Of a DNA stretch of 64,000 nt, positions 6,641 through 27,269 are shown in pieces. The position numbers and the translations under genes were made by a program. Under the pieces are notes generated by a model, which saw only the letters and a program-made list of their open reading frames with translations, was not told where the DNA came from and ran no database searches. Each line of letters starts with the position of its first letter. Within the stretch, counting starts at the first letter, position 1. Source of the stretch: Candidatus Moraniibacteriota bacterium (GTDB lineage Bacteria > Patescibacteriota > Minisyncoccia > Moranbacterales > UBA2206); assembly GCA_049304095.1 (NCBI GenBank), contig JBAQNU010000029.1:34222-98221 (forward strand). Reading direction: 5' to 3'.

Positions 6641-7972
6641 TTAAAATAATTCTTTTATTTTTTCTGCACCATAATAAAACACTTCTCTTCCAATTTTTTT
6701 TGAAAAAAGAAATTTATTGTTTTCAAGATATTTTAAGTCATTAAAGGCAGTCATCCTTGAAATATCATTAATACTCATGTGCGCCCGAATGGCGGTTCTT
6801 CCGTCTGGATTGTCACACAAATATTGAAGAAGTTTTATTTGCCTATCATTAAGCTCGTGCTTACTTTTAGCAATAGCCCCCATTTGAGAATTTTTCCTTG
6901 ACTGGTCACTTAAATAATCATCAAACTCTCTACGCGCCAATTCGATTTTTCTCGTATTATAATCAATGAAATAAGTAAGATCTTGCTCATCTTGTTCAGT
7001 ATACACATAGGCCTTAATATATTGAGCATGCGCCCTTTTTATTGTCCGAGAAATAGGCAAATACGCGAAAGCCCAATAATTTTTCTTCAACAAATACCAA
7101 TAAAACATAAGCCGTGCCAATCTTCCGTTTCCGTCCACAAATGGATGCAAATATCCAATCCAAAAATGGAGCATTATCGCTTTTATCACTGGGTGCAAAA
7201 AAGCCTCTTCCAAGTCATCATTCGCAAAGGCAATAAACCGCTCAATTTCAATCTTCACAAACTTTTCACTAGGTGGCTCATGATAAATTAGATTTTCTTC
7301 ATTAGCTACAATAATTTCATCGCTGTCCAGGCGTAAACGCCCCTGATCCCCTGGATTAACTTGGGTATTTTTGGTGATTATCCGGTGAAGCTCTAAAAGT
7401 AATGCTAAATCTAACTTCTTATTTTTATAGTCTTCCTCGATCAATTTGATCGCTTCGTAATTATTGACAATCATATGCTCTGAAATTGTCTTTGGTTTTT
7501 TCCCTTCTCGAAGCATCTGCTTAGCTAATTTTCTAGTTGTTACGGCGCCTTCTAACTGAGAAGACGCGATCGCCTCCTCCATGACACCTTTCGAGATAAA
7601 TTTGTATTTTGTTTTATCGTTTATGTCTTTGCTGAAGGAAAATAAATTTCCACCCATATTAAGATCAATTTCATGCAAAAATTTTTCCAACCTAGGCAAT
7701 TTTAACCATTTAAAGTTTTCTCCTGTTTCTGTCCTGATTGGACTCCTTGCGAATTGAGCCTCCCTTATTGTTTTCACAAGAAACCAAAATTCTTCGGCAG
7801 AGATTCCTAGTGGTAAGCTTTTGTATTTTACCTTATCCCAATATTGATAAACCGGCTCCATTGTCTCATCAATAAGTGGAAAAAGCTCTTCTTTCCTCTC
7901 TGAAATAAGCAATTTTATTGCTTTTTCCTTGTCAACATTTGATAAATCGGGTTTTTCTAGCTTATAATGCAT
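6641..7972 (-). CDS. fic: Fic/DOC family protein (class II Fic with an internal inhibitory motif)
   Basis: Canonical Fic motif HPFVDGNGRLARLM. An SxxxEG-type inhibitory motif (SSQLEG) lies N-terminal. 443 aa. Confidence 0.9.
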   Translation of the reverse strand: MHYKLEKPDLSNVDKEKAIKLLISERKEELFPLIDETMEPVYQYWDKVKYKSLPLGISAEEFWFLVKTIREAQFARSPIRTETGENFKWLKLPRLEKFLHEIDLNMGGNLFSFSKDINDKTKYKFISKGVMEEAIASSQLEGAVTTRKLAKQMLREGKKPKTISEHMIVNNYEAIKLIEEDYKNKKLDLALLLELHRIITKNTQVNPGDQGRLRLDSDEIIVANEENLIYHEPPSEKFVKIEIERFIAFANDDLEEAFLHPVIKAIMLHFWIGYLHPFVDGNGRLARLMFYWYLLKKNYWAFAYLPISRTIKRAHAQYIKAYVYTEQDEQDLTYFIDYNTRKIELARREFDDYLSDQSRKNSQMGAIAKSKHELNDRQIKLLQYLCDNPDGRTAIRAHMSINDISRMTAFNDLKYLENNKFLFSKKIGREVFYYGAEKIKELF

Positions 7973-10197: not shown

Positions 10198-10320
10198 TTG
10201 AAATTATTGTTTAGGTTTTTTATTGAAATCTATGTAGCACCTAAATCATACCACAGATTTTTTTGACTTATATTGCTTTTCTCCCCTCGCACACTCTCAA
10301 AAATTGCTCGAAAAGCATCA

Positions 10321-11073
10321 TCATTTAATTCCTTTCCAAATAAAATTGATAAAGTTTTTCTGCAAATCAGCAATCGCCTTATCTTTAATGATAACACCGA
10401 TTAGATTTTTGAAAGAGATGAAAGCAACTGTATCATCCACTACAAGAAGATTAGTTTCAAATTTGAATCCTTCTGGCAGTTGTTTGCTTTTGATAAATTT
10501 TTTATATTCCGGATTATTTAGTGTTTCAATATTATTTTCAGTTTTTTCGACTAAACTATAAAGCATTCCGCCATTATTATAGAGAATCATGAGCAAGTCA
10601 TGATTTTCTTTTATTGAGAAGAGGTTAAAGAGATTGTCAGGAGAAAACATGGAATAGATATTTTTATGCGTATCAAAGATCTGCTGATAAACCTTTTTTA
10701 TCCCTTCCTTGCCTTCATAGAAACTGATGTTGGGTTTTTGAAATTTTGCGGAATAAAGCGACTCGAGCTCTGGAATAACTTTTTCCATTTTTCTTTTTTT
10801 TTCTTCAATTTGTCTTTTTTGCACATCCAAAAGCCCCGTGATTTTTCTTGGATTTTCAAGACAATAGGAAATCCGCTTTCCATCAACTGTTTTATAGACC
10901 AAGCCGGAACTAGAAAGACTTTCAATGTATTCATAGACAGTCGTTCTTTTAATGCCAGTTTTGCGAGAAATATCCGTGATCGTTCCTTTGCCTAAAACTA
11001 AAATAGCCAGATAAACAGCTATTTCTTTAGCGGATAAGCCTAAAATGCTAAGTTTTTCTTTAATATTTTCCAT
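10321..11073 (-). CDS. TrmB-like HTH transcriptional regulator, paralog 1
   Basis: The N-terminal LGLSAKEIAVYLAILVLGKGTITDISRKTGIKRTTVYEYIESL is a TrmB-type winged HTH. It is paralogous to 12688..13452 and 20778..21515. Confidence 0.7.
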   Translation of the reverse strand: MENIKEKLSILGLSAKEIAVYLAILVLGKGTITDISRKTGIKRTTVYEYIESLSSSGLVYKTVDGKRISYCLENPRKITGLLDVQKRQIEEKKRKMEKVIPELESLYSAKFQKPNISFYEGKEGIKKVYQQIFDTHKNIYSMFSPDNLFNLFSIKENHDLLMILYNNGGMLYSLVEKTENNIETLNNPEYKKFIKSKQLPEGFKFETNLLVVDDTVAFISFKNLIGVIIKDKAIADLQKNFINFIWKGIK

Positions 11074-11200
11074 AAGCCTAGATTAGCATGTTTTCCAAGT
11101 TTCGTCAATAATTTTCGTCACATTTTATACTAATATAAAATAACTATGGCTATTTTAAAGCTTTTTAACATAATTAGTCATCGCTATTAGTCCGATATTA

Positions 11201-11229
11201 TTGACGTATTGACTAAAATTTGCTATACT
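11201..11229 (+). promoter_or_regulatory. sigma70-like promoter TTGACG-N17-TATACT sharing the AAATTTGCTATACT motif with the promoters of the other two TrmB-like paralogs
   Basis: ttgacgTATTGACTAAAATTTGCtatact. It is oriented toward the small ORF at 11287. Confidence 0.45.
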
Positions 11230-11286
11230 AGCTTGTCATAGTTCATTAATAATCAATGGTCAGTGATTACTGGCGAAGGAGGTAAA

Positions 11287-11439
11287 ATGTACGAAAGAAA
11301 AAAAATAACGCTAGTCGACTGGCTTTTATTGCCAGTTGCGATAATCCTAAACATCCTAGAATATCTAGGATGGCAGAGAATCGCATTGTTAGTCGTGACA
11401 GTACTGCTAACGCGATTCTTTTGGGTATTTCTTTGGTAG
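11287..11439 (+). CDS. 50-aa hydrophobic peptide (mini transcription unit: promoter, RBS, ORF, terminator)
   Basis: aGGAGGtaaaATG RBS. Product MYERKKITLVDWLLLPVAIILNILEYLGWQRIALLVVTVLLTRFFWVFLW. A terminator follows immediately. Confidence 0.45.
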   Translation: MYERKKITLVDWLLLPVAIILNILEYLGWQRIALLVVTVLLTRFFWVFLW

Positions 11440-11444
11440 TCTCA

Positions 11445-11483
11445 AGGGAAGTGTTCATCGCGACACTTCCCTTTTTTATTTTT
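11445..11483 (+). terminator. rho-independent terminator (GGGAAGTGT..ACACTTCCC plus a T-run); near-duplicate of the terminator at 14410
   Basis: aGGGAAGTGTtcatcgcgACACTTCCCttttttattttt. It shares the 17-nt aagggaagtgttcatcg with 14409-14425. Confidence 0.65.
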
Positions 11484-11514
11484 AAAAAATCGACAAATTC
11501 TTTTTGGTTCTGGC

Positions 11515-11620
11515 TTTTGTTTTTTTCTTTATTCAACCTCAAACGCACCACCTTTGTTTGAGTTTTTCGCCCCAAGCCACATGCTCTCAAAAATCGCCCG
11601 AAAGCCATTGTGGATTTTTT
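11515..11620. repeat. 106-bp direct repeat copy A (about 96% identical to 12674..12779); an intergenic relic of a TrmB-like gene 3' end
   Basis: Compared directly with copy B: 4 mismatches. The minus-strand translation gives FESMWLGAKNSNKGGAFEVE*, matching the C-terminus of the TrmB-like protein 12688..13452. Confidence 0.8.
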
Positions 11621-11696
11621 ATGCTATAATCAAAATACGGTAAAATTACCTACCTGAGCCATAAATGTTAAAAATTAATACTAGCTAGTAAGAAAT

Positions 11697-12437
11697 ATGA
11701 GACTAAAAAATAAAATTGCCTTAATAACCGGATCAAGCAGGGGGATTGGTAGGGCCACCGCCTTGTTATTCGCAAAAGAAGGCGCAAAAGTTGTAGTTAA
11801 TTATTTTTCCTCTGAGAAAGAGGCATTTGCCGTTGTTGATGAAATTAAAAAAATAGGCTCAGAAGTAATTGCAATAAAATGTGATATTTCCAAAGAAAAT
11901 GAAGTTATTGAAATGATTAACCAAGCAGTGGAAACTTTCGGAGGAATTGACATTCTTGTTAATAACGCAGGAATTGTTTATGATGTCCCGCTTTTTGAAA
12001 GAAGCGTTGAACAATGGAAAAGGACGTTGGATGTCAATTTGCTCGGAACTTTTCTTTGTAGTAAATATGCTTCCGAGCAAATGCTAGAAAAGACTGGCGG
12101 AAGAATAATTAACATATCTTCAACAAATGCCATAAATAGCTTCAGCCCAGACGCGATTGATTATGACGCTTCAAAAGCGGGCATAATAACCCTAACTAAA
12201 GATTTCGCGAAAGAACTTGCTCCAAAGATACAGGTTAATGCAATTGCTCCAGGTTGGGTAGATACTAACATGAATAAAGATTTATCCAAAGAATTTATTG
12301 AAGATGAAACAAGCAAGATATATCTGAAAAGATTTGCGCAACCAGAGGAAATAGCAAAAGCAATTTTATTTTTTGCAAGTGATGATGCTAGTTATATTAC
12401 AGGAAGCGTTCTAGTCGTAGATGGCGGACACGATTAA
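11697..12437 (+). CDS. short-chain dehydrogenase/reductase (FabG-like SDR)
   Basis: TGSSRGIG cofactor motif, NNAG, and the YDASKAG catalytic YxxxK. 246 aa. Confidence 0.85.
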   Translation: MRLKNKIALITGSSRGIGRATALLFAKEGAKVVVNYFSSEKEAFAVVDEIKKIGSEVIAIKCDISKENEVIEMINQAVETFGGIDILVNNAGIVYDVPLFERSVEQWKRTLDVNLLGTFLCSKYASEQMLEKTGGRIINISSTNAINSFSPDAIDYDASKAGIITLTKDFAKELAPKIQVNAIAPGWVDTNMNKDLSKEFIEDETSKIYLKRFAQPEEIAKAILFFASDDASYITGSVLVVDGGHD

Positions 12438-12673
12438 TTTGGTTGCTCAATATAACGTCTTCTCCCCTTTCAACTTAAATGTTTTTCGCCTCTCGCGTGC
12501 TCTTGAATATCGCCCAAGTCTTGGCTTTTTTTCCAGCGGATGGCCCGAGCGATGTGGACAAATAAAAAAAGACCCTCCGCTAAGTGTGGTGTATAAACCA
12601 CGGCCGAAAGCCTTTTTCTATCTCTAATATTACCAGGTTCTGAGAATATGTCAATAGCGCAATTCCGCACTGG

Positions 12674-12779
12674 TTTTGTTTTTTTCTTTATTCAACCTCA
12701 GACGCACCACCTTTACTTGAATTTTTCGCCCCAAGCCACATGCTCTCAAAAATCGCCCGAAAGCCATTGTGGATTTTTT
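12674..12779. repeat. 106-bp direct repeat copy B, forming the 3' end of the TrmB-like gene 12688..13452
   Basis: See copy A. The two copies flank the SDR gene about 1.16 kb apart. Confidence 0.8.
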
Positions 12780-13452
12780 GACTCTCAATGATAATCCCGA
12801 GATCCTCCCCATAGGAAATGATACCGATTTTCGTTTTGCCATAGATTTTTATTTCAATATCAAACTCAGAAAAAACATTATTGGACACAAACTGGGTTAC
12901 GACAATGAATTTTTGCATTTTTTGTGAGGCTTCCCTATTCACCTGTGTATCCGGAGCAAGCACGCGCATCCAAATCTTTTTCTCTACTCGCTTGGGATTG
13001 TAATATTCCCAAAAAAACTCTTCGCCCAAATTGAGATAGGGATAGGGCATCCAAGTCAGGATTTCGCTGTCTGGATATTTTAGTGTATCTTCAAAAATTT
13101 CTTTCACACTCTCCACTCCTTCAAAATAGCTAATCCGTGGCTTTTTTTCCAAAAGGTTCATCATGGAGATCAGCTGGGGCATCGCTTCTTCCAAGCCTTT
13201 TTTCTTTTCTTCCAACGAATCAATCATTTTTTGCGGGTTTTCAGCGAAAAAAACCGGCCGGGTTTTGTGACGCGATTGATTGATGAGCCTTTTTTCCTTG
13301 AGAATTTCCAGCATATCATAGACCGTAGAGCGCTTTATCTGCGACTTTTTTGTAATTTGGACAATTGTCGCCTCGCCCAACTCCAAAATCGCCAGATAGA
13401 CCTTGGCCTCGCGCTCCCCCAGTCCTGCCTTGATTAATTGTTGTAAAACCAT
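12688..13452 (-). CDS. TrmB-like HTH transcriptional regulator, paralog 2
   Basis: N-terminal LGEREAKVYLAILELGEATIVQITKKSQIKRSTVYDMLEILKEKRL. Its last ~25 aa are encoded by repeat copy B. Confidence 0.7.
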   Translation of the reverse strand: MVLQQLIKAGLGEREAKVYLAILELGEATIVQITKKSQIKRSTVYDMLEILKEKRLINQSRHKTRPVFFAENPQKMIDSLEEKKKGLEEAMPQLISMMNLLEKKPRISYFEGVESVKEIFEDTLKYPDSEILTWMPYPYLNLGEEFFWEYYNPKRVEKKIWMRVLAPDTQVNREASQKMQKFIVVTQFVSNNVFSEFDIEIKIYGKTKIGIISYGEDLGIIIESQKIHNGFRAIFESMWLGAKNSSKGGASEVE

Positions 13453-13491
13453 ATATTTCTAGCTATTAACGCCATTTGCGTCGTTATTCTA

Positions 13492-13520
13492 AGTATAGCA
13501 AATTGTGCCTATTTTGTCAA
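13492..13520 (-). promoter_or_regulatory. promoter of TrmB-like paralog 2: TTGACA-N17-TATACT with the AATTTGCTATACT motif
   Basis: The reverse complement reads ttgacaAAATAGGCACAATTTGCtatact, 40 nt upstream of the ATG. Confidence 0.5.
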
Positions 13521-13579
13521 TATATAAGCCAAATTACGTAATCTATATTTCTATTATATTCAAGACACTATCGCAACTA

Positions 13580-13608
13580 GTGACAAAATTGTCAAAATGA
13601 GCTATAAT
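13580..13608 (+). promoter_or_regulatory. promoter GTGACA-N17-TATAAT overlapping a TGACA-N4-TGTCA palindrome (operator-like)
   Basis: agTGACAaaatTGTCAaaatgagcTATAATgac. It drives the gene starting at 13671. Confidence 0.5.
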
Positions 13609-13670
13609 GACAAGTCATGAAATAATTCGTGACATGCACATTAAAAACTATAAAAAAAGGAGTGAATACC

Positions 13671-14402
13671 ATGGAAAGAATAAATAGGTGTGACCACCTG
13701 ACTGCGTTGATTAAAGCCAATTGTATTGAAAAAGCCTTGGAGATAATTATTTCAGAAAAAGAGTGCCATTTGGCATCTAGCGCTGTTTGTGCAGCACTAA
13801 ATTGCGAGAATGCACCGACGGGGCTAATCGAAGTGGCGCTCGAAAAATTCCGGAGCACCTATGAATATAATGGGGCGGCACATCAACAATGGACCTACCA
13901 ATATTCCCAGTTCTCTGACAGGCTGTGGAAAAGGAGGCTAACCAAATGGATACGCGAGTTCAACGAGGTGTCCTTCAGAGGAACAAGTCGGTTTGGTTGT
14001 CACCGACTAGAATGTTCCGATCGTTTCGTTCATGATTTTGTAAGATTTTCCACTTGGAGTGATGACCCAGCAAAATTTCATCTGACTTTAGAAAATTTGA
14101 AGTGGCTGGATTGGAAAACTCAATGTTGGTGTGATTCTATAGAATACGGAAAAGCTCGCATAGGGGCGAGCAAGTTTGAAACGGAGAAAGATTTCTTGCT
14201 ATGGGAACTTTCTCTGCCACTCGAGACTTTTCGAGAGTTGGATTATCAGACTCAAAAAAAAGCCATTCCCGTAGTAAAGCTGTATAGTCGTTTATGCAGA
14301 CTTGAAGAACTCTTTGTAAACACATCCACTTGCGAATTCCTGAATCTCAGGAAGGAGCTCGCGAGAATTGAACTAGAGCAAATTGAAGATCTTGAGAAGT
14401 AG
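13671..14402 (+). CDS. hypothetical Cys/Trp-rich protein, GC-richer than its surroundings by eye
   Basis: Start chosen at the ATG preceded by aaaGGAGtgaatacc; the ORF track begins at 13629. There is no recognisable family motif. Many Cys and Trp residues. Terminator at 14410. Confidence 0.5.
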   Translation: MERINRCDHLTALIKANCIEKALEIIISEKECHLASSAVCAALNCENAPTGLIEVALEKFRSTYEYNGAAHQQWTYQYSQFSDRLWKRRLTKWIREFNEVSFRGTSRFGCHRLECSDRFVHDFVRFSTWSDDPAKFHLTLENLKWLDWKTQCWCDSIEYGKARIGASKFETEKDFLLWELSLPLETFRELDYQTQKKAIPVVKLYSRLCRLEELFVNTSTCEFLNLRKELARIELEQIEDLEK

Positions 14403-14409
14403 TACCTAA

Positions 14410-14449
14410 GGGAAGTGTTCATCGTAACGCTTCCCTTTTTTTATTTTTC
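14410..14449 (+). terminator. rho-independent terminator, near-duplicate of the one at 11445
   Basis: aaGGGAAGTGttcatcgtaaCGCTTCCCtttttttattttt. Confidence 0.65.
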
Positions 14450-15249: not shown

Positions 15250-16098
15250 TTATTTATTTCTTTTTTTCTTCCCCGCACCCCTAATTAACTTCTTATCCTC
15301 CGACTTTATTTTCCTTTCCACCTTTTTCACATCCTCTTCCGGTGGCAAATTTTCTGGCACAATGCCACGACTCATTAAAGTTTTTCTGACACTTTTATTG
15401 TTTGTGATATGCTCATTGGAAATGGCGCTCTCTGTTTGCATATTTTTCCTTTTCGCATTAAAAATCGTGATCTCCGTCGCAAAATCCTTAGCTTTGAGAA
15501 GAATGGTTGGCATAAAATCAGCCAGCGGCTTGCTATCTTTAATATTCCATCTTACTTTCATCTCCTGTGTCGTTTTACTAAAAAGCGCCTTATCTCCTTT
15601 GCTACGAATAAAAGCAAAGTTTCGATTATCGCCCGTTTGTTCAAAAATAACAACAGAAAGTTCTTTTTCTGTTTTTGAAAGTTTTTTTCTGGCTTGTAAT
15701 CTTTCTGATTCCAAAATCCGCTTCTCAATTATTTCTAATTTCCTTGTCTGAACGGCAAAATATGTTTGAGCGAAAGCGATTTCATTTTTCTTCGGATCAC
15801 CATTTTGGGCTATAAGATAACACGCATAGCGCGTAAGCATAATATCATCTATCTCCTTTTTCGCACCCGAGCCGATGGTGACCATTTTGTTGACGTCAAC
15901 AAAATGGTCTGGAATAGATTGTCCTGAAACATCGCAGGCTATTTTGGCCTTTTCTATAACACCTACAAAATTTCTCCATTCATTGTAGCCAAGCAAATAT
16001 TGCAAGTCACGAGCCAACCAAAACTCTAAACCATTGACTGCTTTTTGACCAATTGATTCAAAATTCTTGGTCAGTGATTTTATAATTTCTTTTTCCAT
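15250..16098 (-). CDS. dinD: DNA damage-inducible protein D (DinD) homolog
   Basis: [44 protein letters not shown] and QTYFAVQTR parallel E. coli DinD (WSARELAPLLDYRDWRNF, DHFVETTKMV, LSRYACYLVVQNGDP, QTYFAIQTR). Confidence 0.7.
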
Positions 16099-20777: not shown

Positions 20778-21515
20778 ATGCAAACACCCCATAAAGACCT
20801 CGAGGAAGCTGGGCTAAAAGAAAAGGAGGCTAAAATCTATCTCGCCATCCTTGAGCTTGGAGAGGCTAATATCGCTCAAATTAGCCTTAGATCAGGCATA
20901 AACCGTAGCACAGTCTATTTGGCGCTGAAAACCTTAAAAGAAAAGGGCTTGCTTTTAACTGTCAAAAAGAATAAAACGCTTTTTTATGCCGAAGATCCGC
21001 GAAAAATGCTGGGTGATTTGGAAAAAAAGAAGGTTGTGTTGGAACGGATAATGCCCAACCTTTTGGCTAGCTTTGCTTTTATTGATAATAAGCCGGAAGT
21101 AAAGTATTTCGAGGGCGAAGAAGGGATCAAGAAAATCTATGAAGACGTCCTAAAAACGCCCAACTCGGAGATGTTGGCCTGGTATTCCAATGATTATCAG
21201 GAATTTTTTGACGAAAAATTCTTTTTTGAATATTTTATTCCCGAGCGGAAAAGAAAAAAAATTTGGCTCCGCTCAATCTACCCAGAAGACCCATCAATGC
21301 GCGCCCTGGCTTCAAATAATGAGGAGCAGTTGCGCCAATCGCGCTTTATCAGCAATGAAAAATTTAAAATTGAAAGTGAAATTTGTCTTTATGAGCACAA
21401 TAAAATAGGCATCATTGCCTATAAAGATAAGCTAGGGATCATAATCTCCAGTCAGACTATTTTCAACACTTTGAAATCAATTTTTGAGGTGATGTGGGAC
21501 GGGGCAAGCAAATAA
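20778..21515 (+). CDS. TrmB-like HTH transcriptional regulator, paralog 3
   Basis: LKEKEAKIYLAILELGEANIAQISLRSGINRSTVYLALKTLKEKGLL. 245 aa. Confidence 0.7.
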   Translation: MQTPHKDLEEAGLKEKEAKIYLAILELGEANIAQISLRSGINRSTVYLALKTLKEKGLLLTVKKNKTLFYAEDPRKMLGDLEKKKVVLERIMPNLLASFAFIDNKPEVKYFEGEEGIKKIYEDVLKTPNSEMLAWYSNDYQEFFDEKFFFEYFIPERKRKKIWLRSIYPEDPSMRALASNNEEQLRQSRFISNEKFKIESEICLYEHNKIGIIAYKDKLGIIISSQTIFNTLKSIFEVMWDGASK

Positions 21516-22636: not shown

Positions 22637-22918
22637 TTATTTCATCCGAATCCGCTCCACCACCACCTCGCCAATTTCTTTGTTGATTAAATCGGCAACT
22701 TTTCCGCGATTGGTCCAAAGCTCGGTTTTCCAGACTGAGCTTTCGCTTTTTACAAACAGGGTTTTTCCGGCGAAATAGTCCGGCACAAATTTTTCGGCGC
22801 CAATATTGCCAAACTGCGCGCGAATGACTTTGCGAAAGACAAAAAAGACTGTTTTATCATCCAGCACTTGGACTTTTTTGAAGTTTTTGCCACCCAAAAG
22901 GTCGCCTAGAGCTTTCAT
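22637..22918 (-). CDS. DUF721 (DciA-like) small protein downstream of dnaN
   Basis: SSVWKTELWTNRGKVADLINKEIGEVVVERIRMK matches the DUF721 C-terminal pattern SSVW..EL...K..L..KIN...G...V..I.F. The position after dnaN is typical. Confidence 0.65.
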   Translation of the reverse strand: MKALGDLLGGKNFKKVQVLDDKTVFFVFRKVIRAQFGNIGAEKFVPDYFAGKTLFVKSESSVWKTELWTNRGKVADLINKEIGEVVVERIRMK

Positions 22919-22923
22919 AGGGA

Positions 22924-24087
22924 CTAATTTTTAATTGGCATCACGATATAGGTAAAGCCAGTGACAAGCTCTCCATTTTCAGAAGCCACCTCACGCAATG
23001 CCACTGGCGAAGCATCACTGTTGGCTAGGAGAGCTAGTTTATTAGAGGTGATAGCGTTGATTCCTTCAAGAAGATATTTCAGATTGAAAACCACCTCTTG
23101 AGATGCGCCCTGCACTTCAAATTTAATCTCAGTGGAGTTTTCACCCACTTCCGCGCTCTTGGTGTTGAGAAAAATATTTTTCGCCGTCTCGTCGATTTTA
23201 AGCACCACTTCACTGGATTTACTATTCACAAAAACTCCCGCGATTTTTAGCGCATTTTGTAATATCTTTTTTTCTCCTAAGATAGTTGTTTTATAACTCT
23301 CCGGCATAATATGCTTATATTCAGGATATTTTCCATTAATGAGGCGCGAAACAATTTTTATTCCATCAACCTCAAAAAATATCTGTCCTTCTTCAATAAA
23401 AATTTGCACCACACTTTTTTCATCCAAATTACCAGAAATAATCCGATTAAGTTCCACTATTGTGCTCGCGGGAACAATAATACTTTTGGTTTTTTCCATA
23501 AAACTTTGATATCTCACTAGATCACACTCACAATCCGTGATCGCTAGCACATATTCTGATAAACGAAAACCATCAGTGGAAGCAAAAAAGATAAATTTTT
23601 CATCAAAAACCACATTTATCCCAGAAAGTTCCTGTCTAGCGTCACTGCGCGCAACGGAAATTAAAATTTTAGCAAAAATATCCCGCAAGCGCCCACTAGA
23701 AACACCCAAAATTGCTTCGGTGCTTTTTTGAGGAATAAGTGGAAAATCTTCCGCTGAAAAACCTTTAATATTTGCCTTTGTTAGGCCACTTTTTATTTTC
23801 AAATTATCTCCATTTTTTTCTAATTCAATATTCTCTCCATCAATTAAATTAGTAGAAAAACTACCCAAAAACTTAGCTGGAATAGTGATTTTCCCTTCCT
23901 GCTCAATTTTCGCTCCAATTTTAATTTCAATTCCAATCTCTAAATTTGTTGCCACAACCTTCAGATAACTCTTAGTTGCTTCAAGGAGGATATTATTTAA
24001 GATTGGTAGTGAATTTTGCTTAGATACAATTCGTTCAGAATTAATAATGGCTTTTTTAAAATTCTCTCCTGTGCAAATCAGTTTCAT
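22924..24087 (-). CDS. dnaN: DNA polymerase III beta sliding clamp
   Basis: 387 aa three-domain clamp. N-terminal MKLICTGENFKKAI..SLPILNNILLEA. It lies directly downstream of dnaA and oriC. Confidence 0.9.
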   Translation of the reverse strand: MKLICTGENFKKAIINSERIVSKQNSLPILNNILLEATKSYLKVVATNLEIGIEIKIGAKIEQEGKITIPAKFLGSFSTNLIDGENIELEKNGDNLKIKSGLTKANIKGFSAEDFPLIPQKSTEAILGVSSGRLRDIFAKILISVARSDARQELSGINVVFDEKFIFFASTDGFRLSEYVLAITDCECDLVRYQSFMEKTKSIIVPASTIVELNRIISGNLDEKSVVQIFIEEGQIFFEVDGIKIVSRLINGKYPEYKHIMPESYKTTILGEKKILQNALKIAGVFVNSKSSEVVLKIDETAKNIFLNTKSAEVGENSTEIKFEVQGASQEVVFNLKYLLEGINAITSNKLALLANSDASPVALREVASENGELVTGFTYIVMPIKN

Positions 24088-24353
24088 ATTAGTATTCTTT
24101 ATTATTAAATATTTAAAAGACTTATTGTTATTATTGAGTAAGGTATATCTGGGGATAAGTATGTTTTTTAGTTTAGTTATGGGATAGGTGTGGTGATTAA
24201 GTTGTGGATAAGTGTTGGTTTTTGAGGATTTGAGGTTGTGGATAGGGATTGGCGTGTTTTTGGTTGGGATGGTTTATTTCAGTTAATTAACAGGTTGTGG
24301 TGGGGGTTATGCTCTGAATATGGGGAGGTTCTAAACAACTTATACACAAGTTA
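24088..24353. promoter_or_regulatory. putative oriC: DnaA-box cluster plus an AT-rich stretch between dnaA and dnaN
   Basis: TGTGGATAA (perfect box, about 24204-24212), TGTGGATAG, TGGGGATAA and TTATACACA within roughly 200 bp. AT-rich DUE-like run at 24090-24140. Confidence 0.6.
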
Positions 24354-25742
24354 TTAGACTATTTTGTAAATTTGCTCTTGAATTGCGGTGAGCTCTTCTT
24401 TTAATTTTTGATCTTTTTCCAAATCCTTAGTTATTTTCTCATAAGCGTGAATGGCGGTGGTGTGATCTCGGCCACCCATTTTTTCCCCAATACCAGGAAA
24501 TGAACAATCCAACTCGCTACGCATAAGATACATGGCGATTTGACGGGGGCGAATAATCTCCTTTTTGCGGTTTTTTGCGACTAGTTCGTCAAGAGTGGTG
24601 TCATAAAAAAGAGCAACAGCTTTGAAGATATGTTTATAGGTAACACCCTTCTTTTTTCCACTGGAAATTAGTTCTGAGAGTTGTGCCTCGGCAAAAGTCT
24701 TGGTGATTTCATTAATATTGCCTAGTTGCGCCAAGACGGCGAGGCGGTTTAGGGCGCCTTCCAGCTCGCGGATGTTGTTTTTAATGTTTGTGGCAATGAA
24801 TAGCAGCGCGTTGTCATCAATGGGAATGTGCTCCGCAACAGCTTTTTTCTTAAGAATAGCGATTCTAGTTTCGAGATCGGGTTTTGAAACATCGGCGATC
24901 ATTCCGCCCTCAAAGCGTGAGCGCAAACGATCTTCCAGAATTTGAATTTCTTTGGGTGGTCGGTCGCTAGTGAGGACGATTTGCTTGTTTAGTTGATAGA
25001 GGAAGTTAAAAATGTGAAAAAATTCTTCCTGGGTTTTTTCTTTGCCTGAAATAAATTGAATGTCGTCAATAATTAAAATATCAATTTTTTGATAATAGGC
25101 TTTAAATTCGTTAATTTTTTGATTTTGGAGTGCGTCTACCAGGTTCGCTGTGAATCTTTCTGAGGTGATGTATTTTATGCGAAAACCGGGATCTGTTTTG
25201 AGTAGCTCATTGCCAATCGATTGAGCGAGGTGGGTCTTTCCCAGTCCCACGCCTCCATAGAGAAAAAGAGGATTGTAGATACGGCCTAGGTTTTGTGAAA
25301 CAGCGAAGCAGGCCGCTCTAGCTAACTCATTGTTGGAGCCAACTACAAAGTTTTCAAAAGTATATTTTGGATTAAGATTATTTTCTAGGTCGATAGGTGT
25401 TGCTTCGGCGTAGGTTTGGTTTCTTGCCGGTTGTTTTGGTGGCGCAATAATCGCATCCATCATCACCTCTCGGCGGATGGGCTTTTCTGTTTCTTTTGTG
25501 GCATCAATGACGCAAGAAATTGATTTGATGTCAGGTTGAATATTGCGAAGAGCCTTTAGGATGTGAGAATTGAATTTATTTTCCAGCCATTCTTTGGCAA
25601 AACCATTAGGAACGCTGATTATGACGTGCCCAGAGTTGTTTGATTGAATGGCGGTTTTTTTAAACCAAGTGATGAAGGTAGCCCTTGAAAGAGAGACCTC
25701 GATTTCAGCTAAAGTGGCTTGCCAAAGCTCTTCGTTGGTCAT
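24354..25742 (-). CDS. dnaA: chromosomal replication initiator DnaA
   Basis: AAA+ Walker A GGVGLGKTHL. The C-terminal DNA-binding domain IAMYLMRSELDCSFPGIGEKMGGRDHTTAIHAYEKI is a DnaA signature. Confidence 0.95.
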   Translation of the reverse strand: MTNEELWQATLAEIEVSLSRATFITWFKKTAIQSNNSGHVIISVPNGFAKEWLENKFNSHILKALRNIQPDIKSISCVIDATKETEKPIRREVMMDAIIAPPKQPARNQTYAEATPIDLENNLNPKYTFENFVVGSNNELARAACFAVSQNLGRIYNPLFLYGGVGLGKTHLAQSIGNELLKTDPGFRIKYITSERFTANLVDALQNQKINEFKAYYQKIDILIIDDIQFISGKEKTQEEFFHIFNFLYQLNKQIVLTSDRPPKEIQILEDRLRSRFEGGMIADVSKPDLETRIAILKKKAVAEHIPIDDNALLFIATNIKNNIRELEGALNRLAVLAQLGNINEITKTFAEAQLSELISSGKKKGVTYKHIFKAVALFYDTTLDELVAKNRKKEIIRPRQIAMYLMRSELDCSFPGIGEKMGGRDHTTAIHAYEKITKDLEKDQKLKEELTAIQEQIYKIV

Positions 25743-26495: not shown

Positions 26496-27269
26496 ATGGC
26501 TTTTTTATTTAACGAACTGGTTTATCGCCCAATCTATAATCTTTTGATTTTTATCTATAACATACTGCCTTGGCATGATTTTGGTGTGGCGATCATTTTT
26601 GTGACTATAATTATTAAATTAGTGCTTGTCCCTCTGAGTAAAAAACAAATCGAGTCGCAAAAGAAAATGCAGGAACTTCAGCCAAAGCTGAAAGCCGTGC
26701 AAGATAAATATAAAAACGACAAGGAAAAGCAAACCAAGGCGGTGATGGAGTTTTATAAGGAAAATAAGGCTAATCCTTTTTCCGGTTGCTTGCCTTTGAT
26801 TTTTCAGATGGTTTTTCTGATTGCCATTTATCGCGTATTGTATAATATTTCTCAAAACGGGCTCATGGCAAATAGCGCTGATTTGTATGCTTTTGTGCAC
26901 AATCCTGGACAGATAAACCACTTTTTTCTAGGACTCGTTGATCTTTCTGGCGCGGCGATTAATTTTGGCGCGCTCAATGTGTCCACTGTCGCGCATATTC
27001 TTTTGGTCGTGGCGGCTGCCGGGGCGCAATATGTGCAGACTAAAATGCTAATGGCGACTAAAAAAGAAAAAGAAGTTGTCGTGAAAGATAAAAAAGACGC
27101 TAAGGAGCCAGATTTTGCCAGCATGATGTCTAAGCAGATGCTCTATCTTGCTCCGATTATGACTCTGTTTATTGGAATAAAATTTCCCGCCGGTCTTGCA
27201 TTGTATTGGCTGGTTTCAACTTTGTTTATGATTATACAGCAGAAACAGTTGGAGAAAAGAAAGAGTTGA
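26496..27269 (+). CDS. yidC: membrane protein insertase YidC (short form)
   Basis: Conserved rpmH-rnpA-yidC-jag order. Multi-TM protein with LPLIFQMVFLIAIY and a basic C-terminal tail. Confidence 0.85.
   Translation: MAFLFNELVYRPIYNLLIFIYNILPWHDFGVAIIFVTIIIKLVLVPLSKKQIESQKKMQELQPKLKAVQDKYKNDKEKQTKAVMEFYKENKANPFSGCLPLIFQMVFLIAIYRVLYNISQNGLMANSADLYAFVHNPGQINHFFLGLVDLSGAAINFGALNVSTVAHILLVVAAAGAQYVQTKMLMATKKEKEVVVKDKKDAKEPDFASMMSKQMLYLAPIMTLFIGIKFPAGLALYWLVSTLFMIIQQKQLEKRKS

Follow-up and report, generated by a model that had tools for sequence, protein, structure and literature searches.

Duplicated 3' end of a TrmB-like regulator gene around a short-chain dehydrogenase/reductase gene in a Candidatus Moraniibacteriota genome, a probable recombination scar

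Direct duplications of a gene end on either side of inserted DNA have been described at lacZ of Escherichia coli, where circularised DNA with a gene end was shown by experiment to integrate by a single crossover and to leave duplications of 109–950 bp (PMC3240628), while homology-facilitated illegitimate recombination (HFIR), anchored in a conserved gene, has been proposed for the orphaned 3' regions of type VI secretion system (T6SS) and Rhs loci (PMC5361080). Here we describe a comparable structure in a 64,000-nucleotide stretch of DNA from a Candidatus Moraniibacteriota bacterium of the candidate phyla radiation (CPR) (contig JBAQNU010000029.1, positions 34,222 to 98,221 of the forward strand; hereafter the window). 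The last part of a regulator gene with a TrmB-type domain, here called TrmB2, is present as two direct repeats, i.e. copy B, which forms the live 3' end of the gene, and copy A, which is an orphan, and between them lies a gene for a short-chain dehydrogenase/reductase (SDR). On balance, the structure is probably a recombination scar, left when an accessory gene was gained by single crossover or HFIR and the resident 3' end of the regulator gene was displaced. Scars of this kind are known, and the feature is an ordinary one among them, not a novel type of element.

As in the Campbell-type integrations at lacZ, direct repeats of a gene end (106–111 bp here) flank the insert, with one copy attached to the gene and the other orphaned; in contrast to these, the event here would be a natural one, in an uncultured CPR bacterium, and is known from sequence alone. 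The likeness to C-terminal displacement in Rhs and T6SS loci lies in a homology-anchored module and in a resident 3' end that is shifted downstream as an orphan fragment; repeated events there can stack relics, of which the window here has two. However, in those loci it is toxin tips that are diversified and immunity genes that stay under selection, whereas the regulator tail displaced here has no evident function, and the cargo, encoded on the opposite strand, is an oxidoreductase of housekeeping type. Islands at the 3' ends of genes or tRNA genes (attL/attR) likewise have a 3'-end target, an end restored by the incoming copy and direct repeats that bracket the cargo, but at the present locus no integrase was found, the cargo is a single gene of 1.05 kb, and there is neither a sign of mobility nor a further unit elsewhere.

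The repeat pair and the module between its copies

The features concerned are, in window coordinates:

11510..11620, minus strand: copy A, orphan 3' end of a TrmB2-type regulator gene, with 29 codons, a TAA stop and ~18–22 nt of downstream sequence
11621..11696, plus strand: predicted SDR promoter and leader, with an extended -10 element, TGCTATAAT, at 11622–11630, read from the sequence
11697..12437, plus strand: SDR / FabG-like oxidoreductase of 246 aa, with TGSSRGIG and YDASK motifs (Pfam)
12438..12669, no strand assigned: 232-nt spacer from the SDR gene to copy B, with a GC content of 42–46 % vs ~30 % for other intergenic DNA at the locus
12560..12623, minus strand: hairpin with a U-run, likely the intrinsic terminator of TrmB2 (folding)
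12670..12779, minus strand: copy B, live 3' end of TrmB2, with the last 29 codons, the stop at 12688–12690 and 14–18 nt of downstream sequence
12688..13452, minus strand: TrmB2, a 254-aa regulator with a TrmB-type winged-helix domain (Pfam)

By repeat search and base-by-base comparison, copy A (11515–11620) and copy B (12674–12779) are identical at 102 of 106 positions (96.2 %), and their starts lie 1159 bp apart; a single 1-nt gap adds 4 nt (CTGG) leftward, to 11510/12670, the match then comprising 111 bases. The repeats contain a perfectly identical stretch of 58 nt. In a self-blastn of the window the pair is found with E = 3e-44 and there is no other long repeat, while a 46-nt core of the repeat occurs exactly twice in the 64 kb, as against no occurrence in 100 shuffles. 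Together with the Pfam assignment, these comparisons confirm a preliminary description of this DNA, according to which direct repeats of ~96 % identity, 1159 bp apart, bracket the SDR gene.

That description had taken copy B for the last ~25 residues of the regulator; it is indeed the regulator's 3' end, but the shared coding part amounts to 29 residues. On the minus strand copy A reads KIHNGFRAIFESMWLGAKNSNKGGAFEVE*, i.e. the copy B peptide with two substitutions and the stop intact. No open reading frame (ORF) continues it, as had been stated before, and translation shows why: an in-frame TAA at 11621–11623 (..ILIIA*K..) closes copy A upstream exactly at the repeat edge. The relationship is also recovered by tblastn, in which copy A is 83 % identical to TrmB2 residues 220–254 (E = 3e-13), and by a hidden Markov model (HMM) of the TrmB C-terminus (E = 2.6e-10). 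A 113-aa ORF at 11267..11608 on the minus strand, which starts in an alternative frame of the repeat and runs antisense to a small ORF and its terminator hairpin, may reasonably be regarded as a frame artefact; in annotation, copy A and this overlying ORF are better treated as a pseudogene fragment than as a gene.

Both junctions were reproduced independently in Logan unitigs of run SRR28062512. One unitig of 1161 bp (L001) corresponds exactly to window positions 11591–12751, and another (L014) ends at 11592; the ends fall at these positions because a k=31 graph must break around the 58-nt identical stretch.

Judged by its predicted domains, the enclosed gene encodes a classical SDR, with the adh_short profile (PF00106, E = 1e-58, 198.2 bits), the TGxxxGxG cofactor motif and the YxxxK catalytic motif all present; the adh_short_C2 profile (PF13561) is matched with E = 1e-67 and 228.6 bits. 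The predicted extended -10 element of its promoter, TGCTATAAT, begins two bases past the repeat edge, in a GCTATA(A/C)T context that recurs in neighbouring promoters, and there is no convincing -35 element. On the other side of the gene, the spacer shows no homology to any fetched locus and contains, ~65–130 nt downstream of the regulator stop, a 64-nt hairpin (12560–12623) that on the minus strand folds with -27.1 kcal/mol (z = -5.67; 0 of 200 shuffles as stable), vs z = -1.37 on the plus strand, and that is likely the intrinsic terminator of TrmB2. Taken together, copy B and the spacer resemble a native 3' untranslated region (UTR) of the regulator, brought along with the SDR gene. Going by the predicted promoter and hairpin, the 1053 nt between the repeats is a complete SDR expression unit together with the regulator's own 3' UTR and terminator.

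A structured RNA was considered for this region and rejected, as Rfam gave no match at E <= 1 over 11100–13700 and the 236-nt spacer, folded as a whole, has no exceptional stability (z = +1.36 and -1.35). The spacer also holds a strong promoter-like site on the minus strand at 12627–12654 (TTGACA, a 16-nt spacer and TAATAT with TG), just past the regulator stop and directly before the hairpin at 12560–12623. This site could be the source of a ~65-nt hairpin RNA or of a transcript antisense to the SDR gene, or it could be fortuitous.

The site and the SDR gene in relatives

TrmB2 carries a TrmB helix-turn-helix (HTH) domain (PF01978) at residues 8–69 (E = 1.4e-13, 50.9 bits vs a cut-off of 25.6). 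Residues 75–254 match no Pfam family at E <= 0.01, including the sugar-binding effector domain of the characterised archaeal TrmB, and 'TrmB-like' therefore refers to the HTH domain only. The exact protein is found in four NCBI records of metagenome-assembled genomes (MAGs) named 'Candidatus Moraniibacteriota', on contigs of up to 294 kb, and its homologues all belong to CPR/Patescibacteria. Four related loci were informative for the site:

L004 (180-kb ENA scaffold), ~78 % nucleotide identity at the regulator: orthologues of TrmB1 (a paralogue of TrmB2 at 10321..11073), ORF 13629..14402 and TrmB2 present in a different order; shorter tail (..ESGWKNEV), followed downstream by a 125-aa ORF and a MamF-like gene; no SDR gene
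L007 (1688-bp contig), 84 %: shorter tail; the contig stops 132 bp past the regulator, which leaves the downstream neighbour out of view
L005, 86 %: long tail as in the window, then a Y1/HUH transposase-like gene; no SDR gene
L006 (937-bp ENA contig), 95 %: long tail as in the window, then a convergent TrmB paralogue; no SDR gene

Downstream of the regulator, none of these four relatives (77–95 % nucleotide identity) has an SDR gene or a second copy of the 3' end, in L007 over the 132 bp that the contig covers. Homology of L005 and L006 to the window stops at 12677–12679, ~5–9 nt from the left edge of the repeat (12670–12674), and on these alignments that edge is the natural limit of allelic homology. 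In L006, positions 30–611 are a fusion in which ~55 codons of a shikimate-kinase-like start continue in frame into the last 435 nt of a TrmB2-type gene (95 % identical to the window); either the rearrangement is real or the contig is chimeric.

Wider searches gave the same picture. No SDR gene lies within 5 kb of a TrmB2-family gene in any of 70 further metagenome loci, and among 82 TrmB-like genes examined only the regulator of the window has a duplicated 3' end of >30 nt. According to the preliminary description, its reading would fail if the repeat were a common genome-wide element unrelated to the TrmB-like gene; the repeat occurs twice in the window and has no copies in ~545 kb of related loci, and its tail pattern gave 0 matches in a metagenome contig collection. 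On the same counts a dispersed repeat, such as a repetitive extragenic palindromic (REP) element or a miniature inverted-repeat transposable element (MITE), was rejected.

The SDR family, for its part, keeps an identity of 70–92 % over distant lineages of the CPR and a DPANN archaeon, with 77 % for an Aenigmarchaeota protein. Its nearest homologues (L008–L013; 84–92 % at the amino acid and 77–89 % at the nucleotide level) stand in at least four unrelated contexts, with an IS110 transposase (L010), a DNA methyltransferase, a tRNA-Thr editing-domain gene or NUDIX genes as neighbours, and no TrmB gene lies beside any of them. Nucleotide homology of these loci to the window is restricted to 11671–12449. 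The identity over distant lineages and the unrelated contexts suggest frequent horizontal transfer of the bare SDR ORF. Since the relatives of the regulator are without the SDR gene and the SDR homologues occur in unrelated contexts, we infer a gain of the SDR gene at this site and not a loss. The suggestion made earlier, of a duplicative rearrangement or of an SDR insertion at the regulator 3' end, is supported by the same two observations.

Origin of the two copies

Copies A and B differ at 11542/12701 (A/G), 11556/12715 (G/A), 11557/12716 (T/C) and 11562/12721 (G/A); in the orientation of the regulator, the codons affected are AAT/AAC (synonymous), AGT/AAC (Ser/Asn, two bases) and TCT/TTT (Ser/Phe). 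All four differences fall into hypervariable codons of the tail, which varies among orthologues, and the other 102 positions are identical. At each of the four sites copy A has the base of L006, the closest relative, while copy B has the base of L005 at two of the four, the two AGT bases being unique to copy B. Two alleles are favoured over decay in place, because decay predicts derived changes in copy A, spread along copy A. From these patterns we infer an allelic origin of the copies: copy A looks like the resident allele, and copy B like the incoming allele linked to the spacer and the SDR gene.

At 11538–11562, copy A forms on the plus strand a perfect 8-bp hairpin followed by TTTTT (-6.8 kcal/mol, z = -3.0), vs -0.9 kcal/mol for copy B at 12697–12721. 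A compensatory, i.e. newly selected, hairpin in copy A was considered and dropped, since the copy A bases are also present in L006 and are thus probably ancestral.

If the structure is a scar of gene gain, the incoming segment would have comprised the SDR gene with its own promoter, the spacer with the regulator terminator, an allelic regulator 3' end and possibly more of the regulator, and it would have entered the resident regulator gene in a one-sided homologous event. This may have been a single crossover of a circularised fragment (Campbell type), or HFIR with the anchor in the regulator gene and the illegitimate join between 11620 and 11621. Copy B, as the incoming 3' end, would then complete the live gene, while copy A, as the resident one, would have been pushed 1159 bp downstream and orphaned beside the terminator of the neighbouring gene. 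Either route would account for the sharp junction at 11620|11621 in a T-run, for the left edge at the limit of allelic homology and for the presence of the terminator with copy B.

Several observations weigh against this explanation. The polarisation of the copies rests on four sites and two short outgroup contigs, repeat position 75 groups A with B, and L006, in which a regulator fragment is fused to the shikimate-kinase-like start, is possibly chimeric. There is no mosaic breakpoint inside TrmB2, the mismatches to L006 clustering in the tail with no clear crossover point, and the presumed donor arrangement, i.e. an SDR gene convergent with a TrmB2-type gene, was not found in any fetched locus. 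Moreover, the empty-site comparison covers relatives of 77–95 % nucleotide identity, none of them of the same species.

Recombination between the repeats could act in the opposite direction as well. Through the 58-nt perfect stretch, a deletion would remove the SDR gene and leave an intact regulator with the copy A tail, and the description of the repeats as a substrate for excision is in this sense plausible in principle. However, no excision or duplication polymorphism was found, and the protein predicted for the excised form, i.e. the regulator body with the copy A tail, is absent from a collection of ~15 billion proteins, while the copy B form is recorded four times. A circular 1.16-kb form had been considered on the strength of unitig L001 and was rejected: its ends at 11591/12751 are the k=31 unitig limits at the 58-nt stretch and are uninformative on circles.

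The locus would thus be a base-resolved example of a reduced CPR genome that gained a single metabolic gene without a recognisable mobile element, and the gain would possibly be cleanly reversible, as recombination between the repeats would restore an intact regulator. To our knowledge, such recombination events have rarely been documented at base resolution in this kind of organism.

Other relics, rival explanations and the surrounding region

On the left side of the repeat pair, the following features bear on how the structure is to be explained:

10233..10320, minus strand: second and older relic, with a TrmB2-type C-terminal sequence (..DDAFRAIFESVRGEKSN..); it follows the TrmB1 stop (10321–10323) without a gap and is in another frame
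10321..11073, minus strand: TrmB1, a 250-aa paralogue, 27 % identical to TrmB2 and divergent from the small ORF
11263/11287..11439, plus strand: small ORF, with its terminator hairpin at 11444..11483
11444..11483, plus strand: terminator hairpin of the small ORF (z = -5.45), 27 nt from copy A; a second copy lies at 14408–14447

At the DNA level, nothing else in the window, the two copies aside, resembles the repeat as closely as the relic at 10233–10320, whose score was reached in 0 of 2000 shuffles; with the C-terminal HMM it scores only marginally (E = 0.64). A further relic is found at L027 3542–3630, and identically in L025, where an orphan TrmB C-terminal fragment (LKAIFESMWVLGKE) is accompanied by a copy of the live gene's terminator hairpin; it is intergenic, in an unrelated CPR genome, within an array of units that each consist of a regulator and a ~370-aa gene. 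When the HMM of the family C-terminus was run against six-frame translations of all loci, orphan relics were detected only in the window (two) and in L025/L027 (one), the match in L054 being a frameshifted paralogue.

The relics at 11510–11620 and 10233–10320, which differ in age, the relic in L027 and the L006 fusion are hints of recurrence. CPR bacteria are mostly without classical mobile elements, and it is tempting to speculate that the last ~30 codons of CPR TrmB-like genes are recurrent landing sites for promoter-bearing single-gene modules, a proposal that we nevertheless hold to be distinctly improbable. Foreign DNA would be taken up and joined by one-sided homologous recombination, and each event would displace the resident tail and stack 3' relics. 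A recurrent hotspot as a general mechanism was rejected, as three relics in ~545 kb of family loci are too few.

Among the alternatives to gene gain by one-sided recombination, the main rival, which in our judgement is unlikely, is the decay of a paralogue. There would once have been two tandem TrmB2-type genes, of which the left one ended in copy A and was divergent from the SDR gene, until a deletion of ~700 bp removed its body and promoter and fused its last 106 nt to the SDR core promoter. Every TrmB paralogue at the locus is indeed paired divergently with a plus-strand gene, TrmB paralogues are often clustered (2–3 per locus in many relatives), and both the second relic after TrmB1 and the orphan C-terminus beside the paralogue array in L027/L025 would fit such a history, as would the resemblance of the copies to diverged alleles. 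However, a divergent TrmB gene is present in none of five different SDR-homologue contexts, no relative examined has two tandem TrmB2-type copies, and two events are needed, i.e. a duplication or insertion of the regulator and then a deletion that preserved a working SDR promoter exactly at the junction. Another course would be duplication in place, in which 1053 nt of foreign DNA entered at a staggered break or by template switching, with a target duplication of 106–111 nt, and the differences arose later. While a direct duplication flanking the insert is the geometry expected from this and the T-run at the right junction is a possible microhomology, it is improbable, given that copy A, as a neutral relic, matches the nearest relative at all four sites with the 102 other positions unchanged, and that the spacer terminator is oriented for the regulator, which is unexpected in random foreign DNA.

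When an element integrates at the 3' end of a gene, it brings a replacement for that end, and direct repeats result; the geometry here, along with the two relics in one window, agrees with attL and attR of a small integrase-mobilised element or integron-like cassette targeting the regulator 3' end. We nonetheless consider this highly unlikely: neither the segment nor the ~10 kb to its left and right encodes an integrase, transposase or recombinase (none of 30 neighbouring ORFs scanned with Pfam from 50 to 29291 was an integrase or transposase), there are no terminal inverted repeats, no attC-like structure was detected, Rfam gives no match at E <= 1, and the unit is present in no further copies and matched nothing relevant in collections of plasmids and phages. 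Barely credible, finally, is an assembly artefact in which strain variants were collapsed or chimerically joined, so that the copies would not be on one molecule. In the k=31 graph, the 58 nt do form a shared node that two paths enter and two leave, and the graph alone does not fix their pairing, yet ordinary reads, like the large-k steps of an assembly, extend beyond 58 nt. Moreover, the regulator with the copy B tail is present in four MAG records, while the product of the alternative pairing is absent, and the SDR gene and TrmB1 are each recorded on three long contigs.

Further classes of element were tried and discarded. An insertion sequence or transposon with target-site duplication would call for terminal inverted repeats and a transposase, neither of which was seen, and the duplication of 106–111 bp contrasts with the short ones of 2–15 bp. 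For an integron gene cassette there was no Rfam match at E <= 1, the repeat folds weakly and no integrase was found. As for cargo of a mobile element, there was no phage match, and the plasmids gave only an irrelevant 203-nt Bacillus match.

Altogether three TrmB-like paralogues are encoded in the window, at 10321..11073 (minus), 12688..13452 (minus) and 20778..21515 (plus). The divergent promoter regions of TrmB1/small ORF and of TrmB2/ORF 13629..14402 share the motif TATTGAC..N..TTTGCTATACT (11199–11229, 13492–13522 and 13578–13613), and a 36-nt imperfect palindrome lies between TrmB2 and its divergent partner ORF 13629..14402; these motif and palindrome sites may be operators for autoregulation.

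The terminator hairpin beside copy A belongs to a GC-rich 30-nt type (AAGGGAAGTGTTCATCGCGACACTTCCCTT) that is present in the window (11444–11483 and 14408–14447), in L004 (6706–6735 and 8545–8574) and in L007 (120–149). These hairpins, two per locus, are 86–94 % identical across genomes whose coding DNA is 77–84 % identical. One of the copies in L004 lies 17 nt past a Y1/HUH (IS200/RAYT-like) gene, and in L005 such a gene directly follows the regulator, while the window is without one. Possibly, the hairpin is a REP-like element.

Genes for a Fic-domain protein (6641–7972) and a Bro-N-domain protein (15250–16098) flank a stretch of ~6.6–16 kb that consists mostly of unannotatable ORFs and TrmB paralogues, and whose gene order differs from that of L004, which suggests a variable accessory region. 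Further to the right, dnaN and dnaA are found on the minus strand at 22924–25742, with DciA (22637..22918) and YidC (26496..27269) nearby, and the window probably spans the replication origin region near 25.8–26.4 kb. Given dnaA/dnaN at 22.9–25.7 kb, the repeat locus is therefore chromosomal and lies ~12 kb from the origin region.

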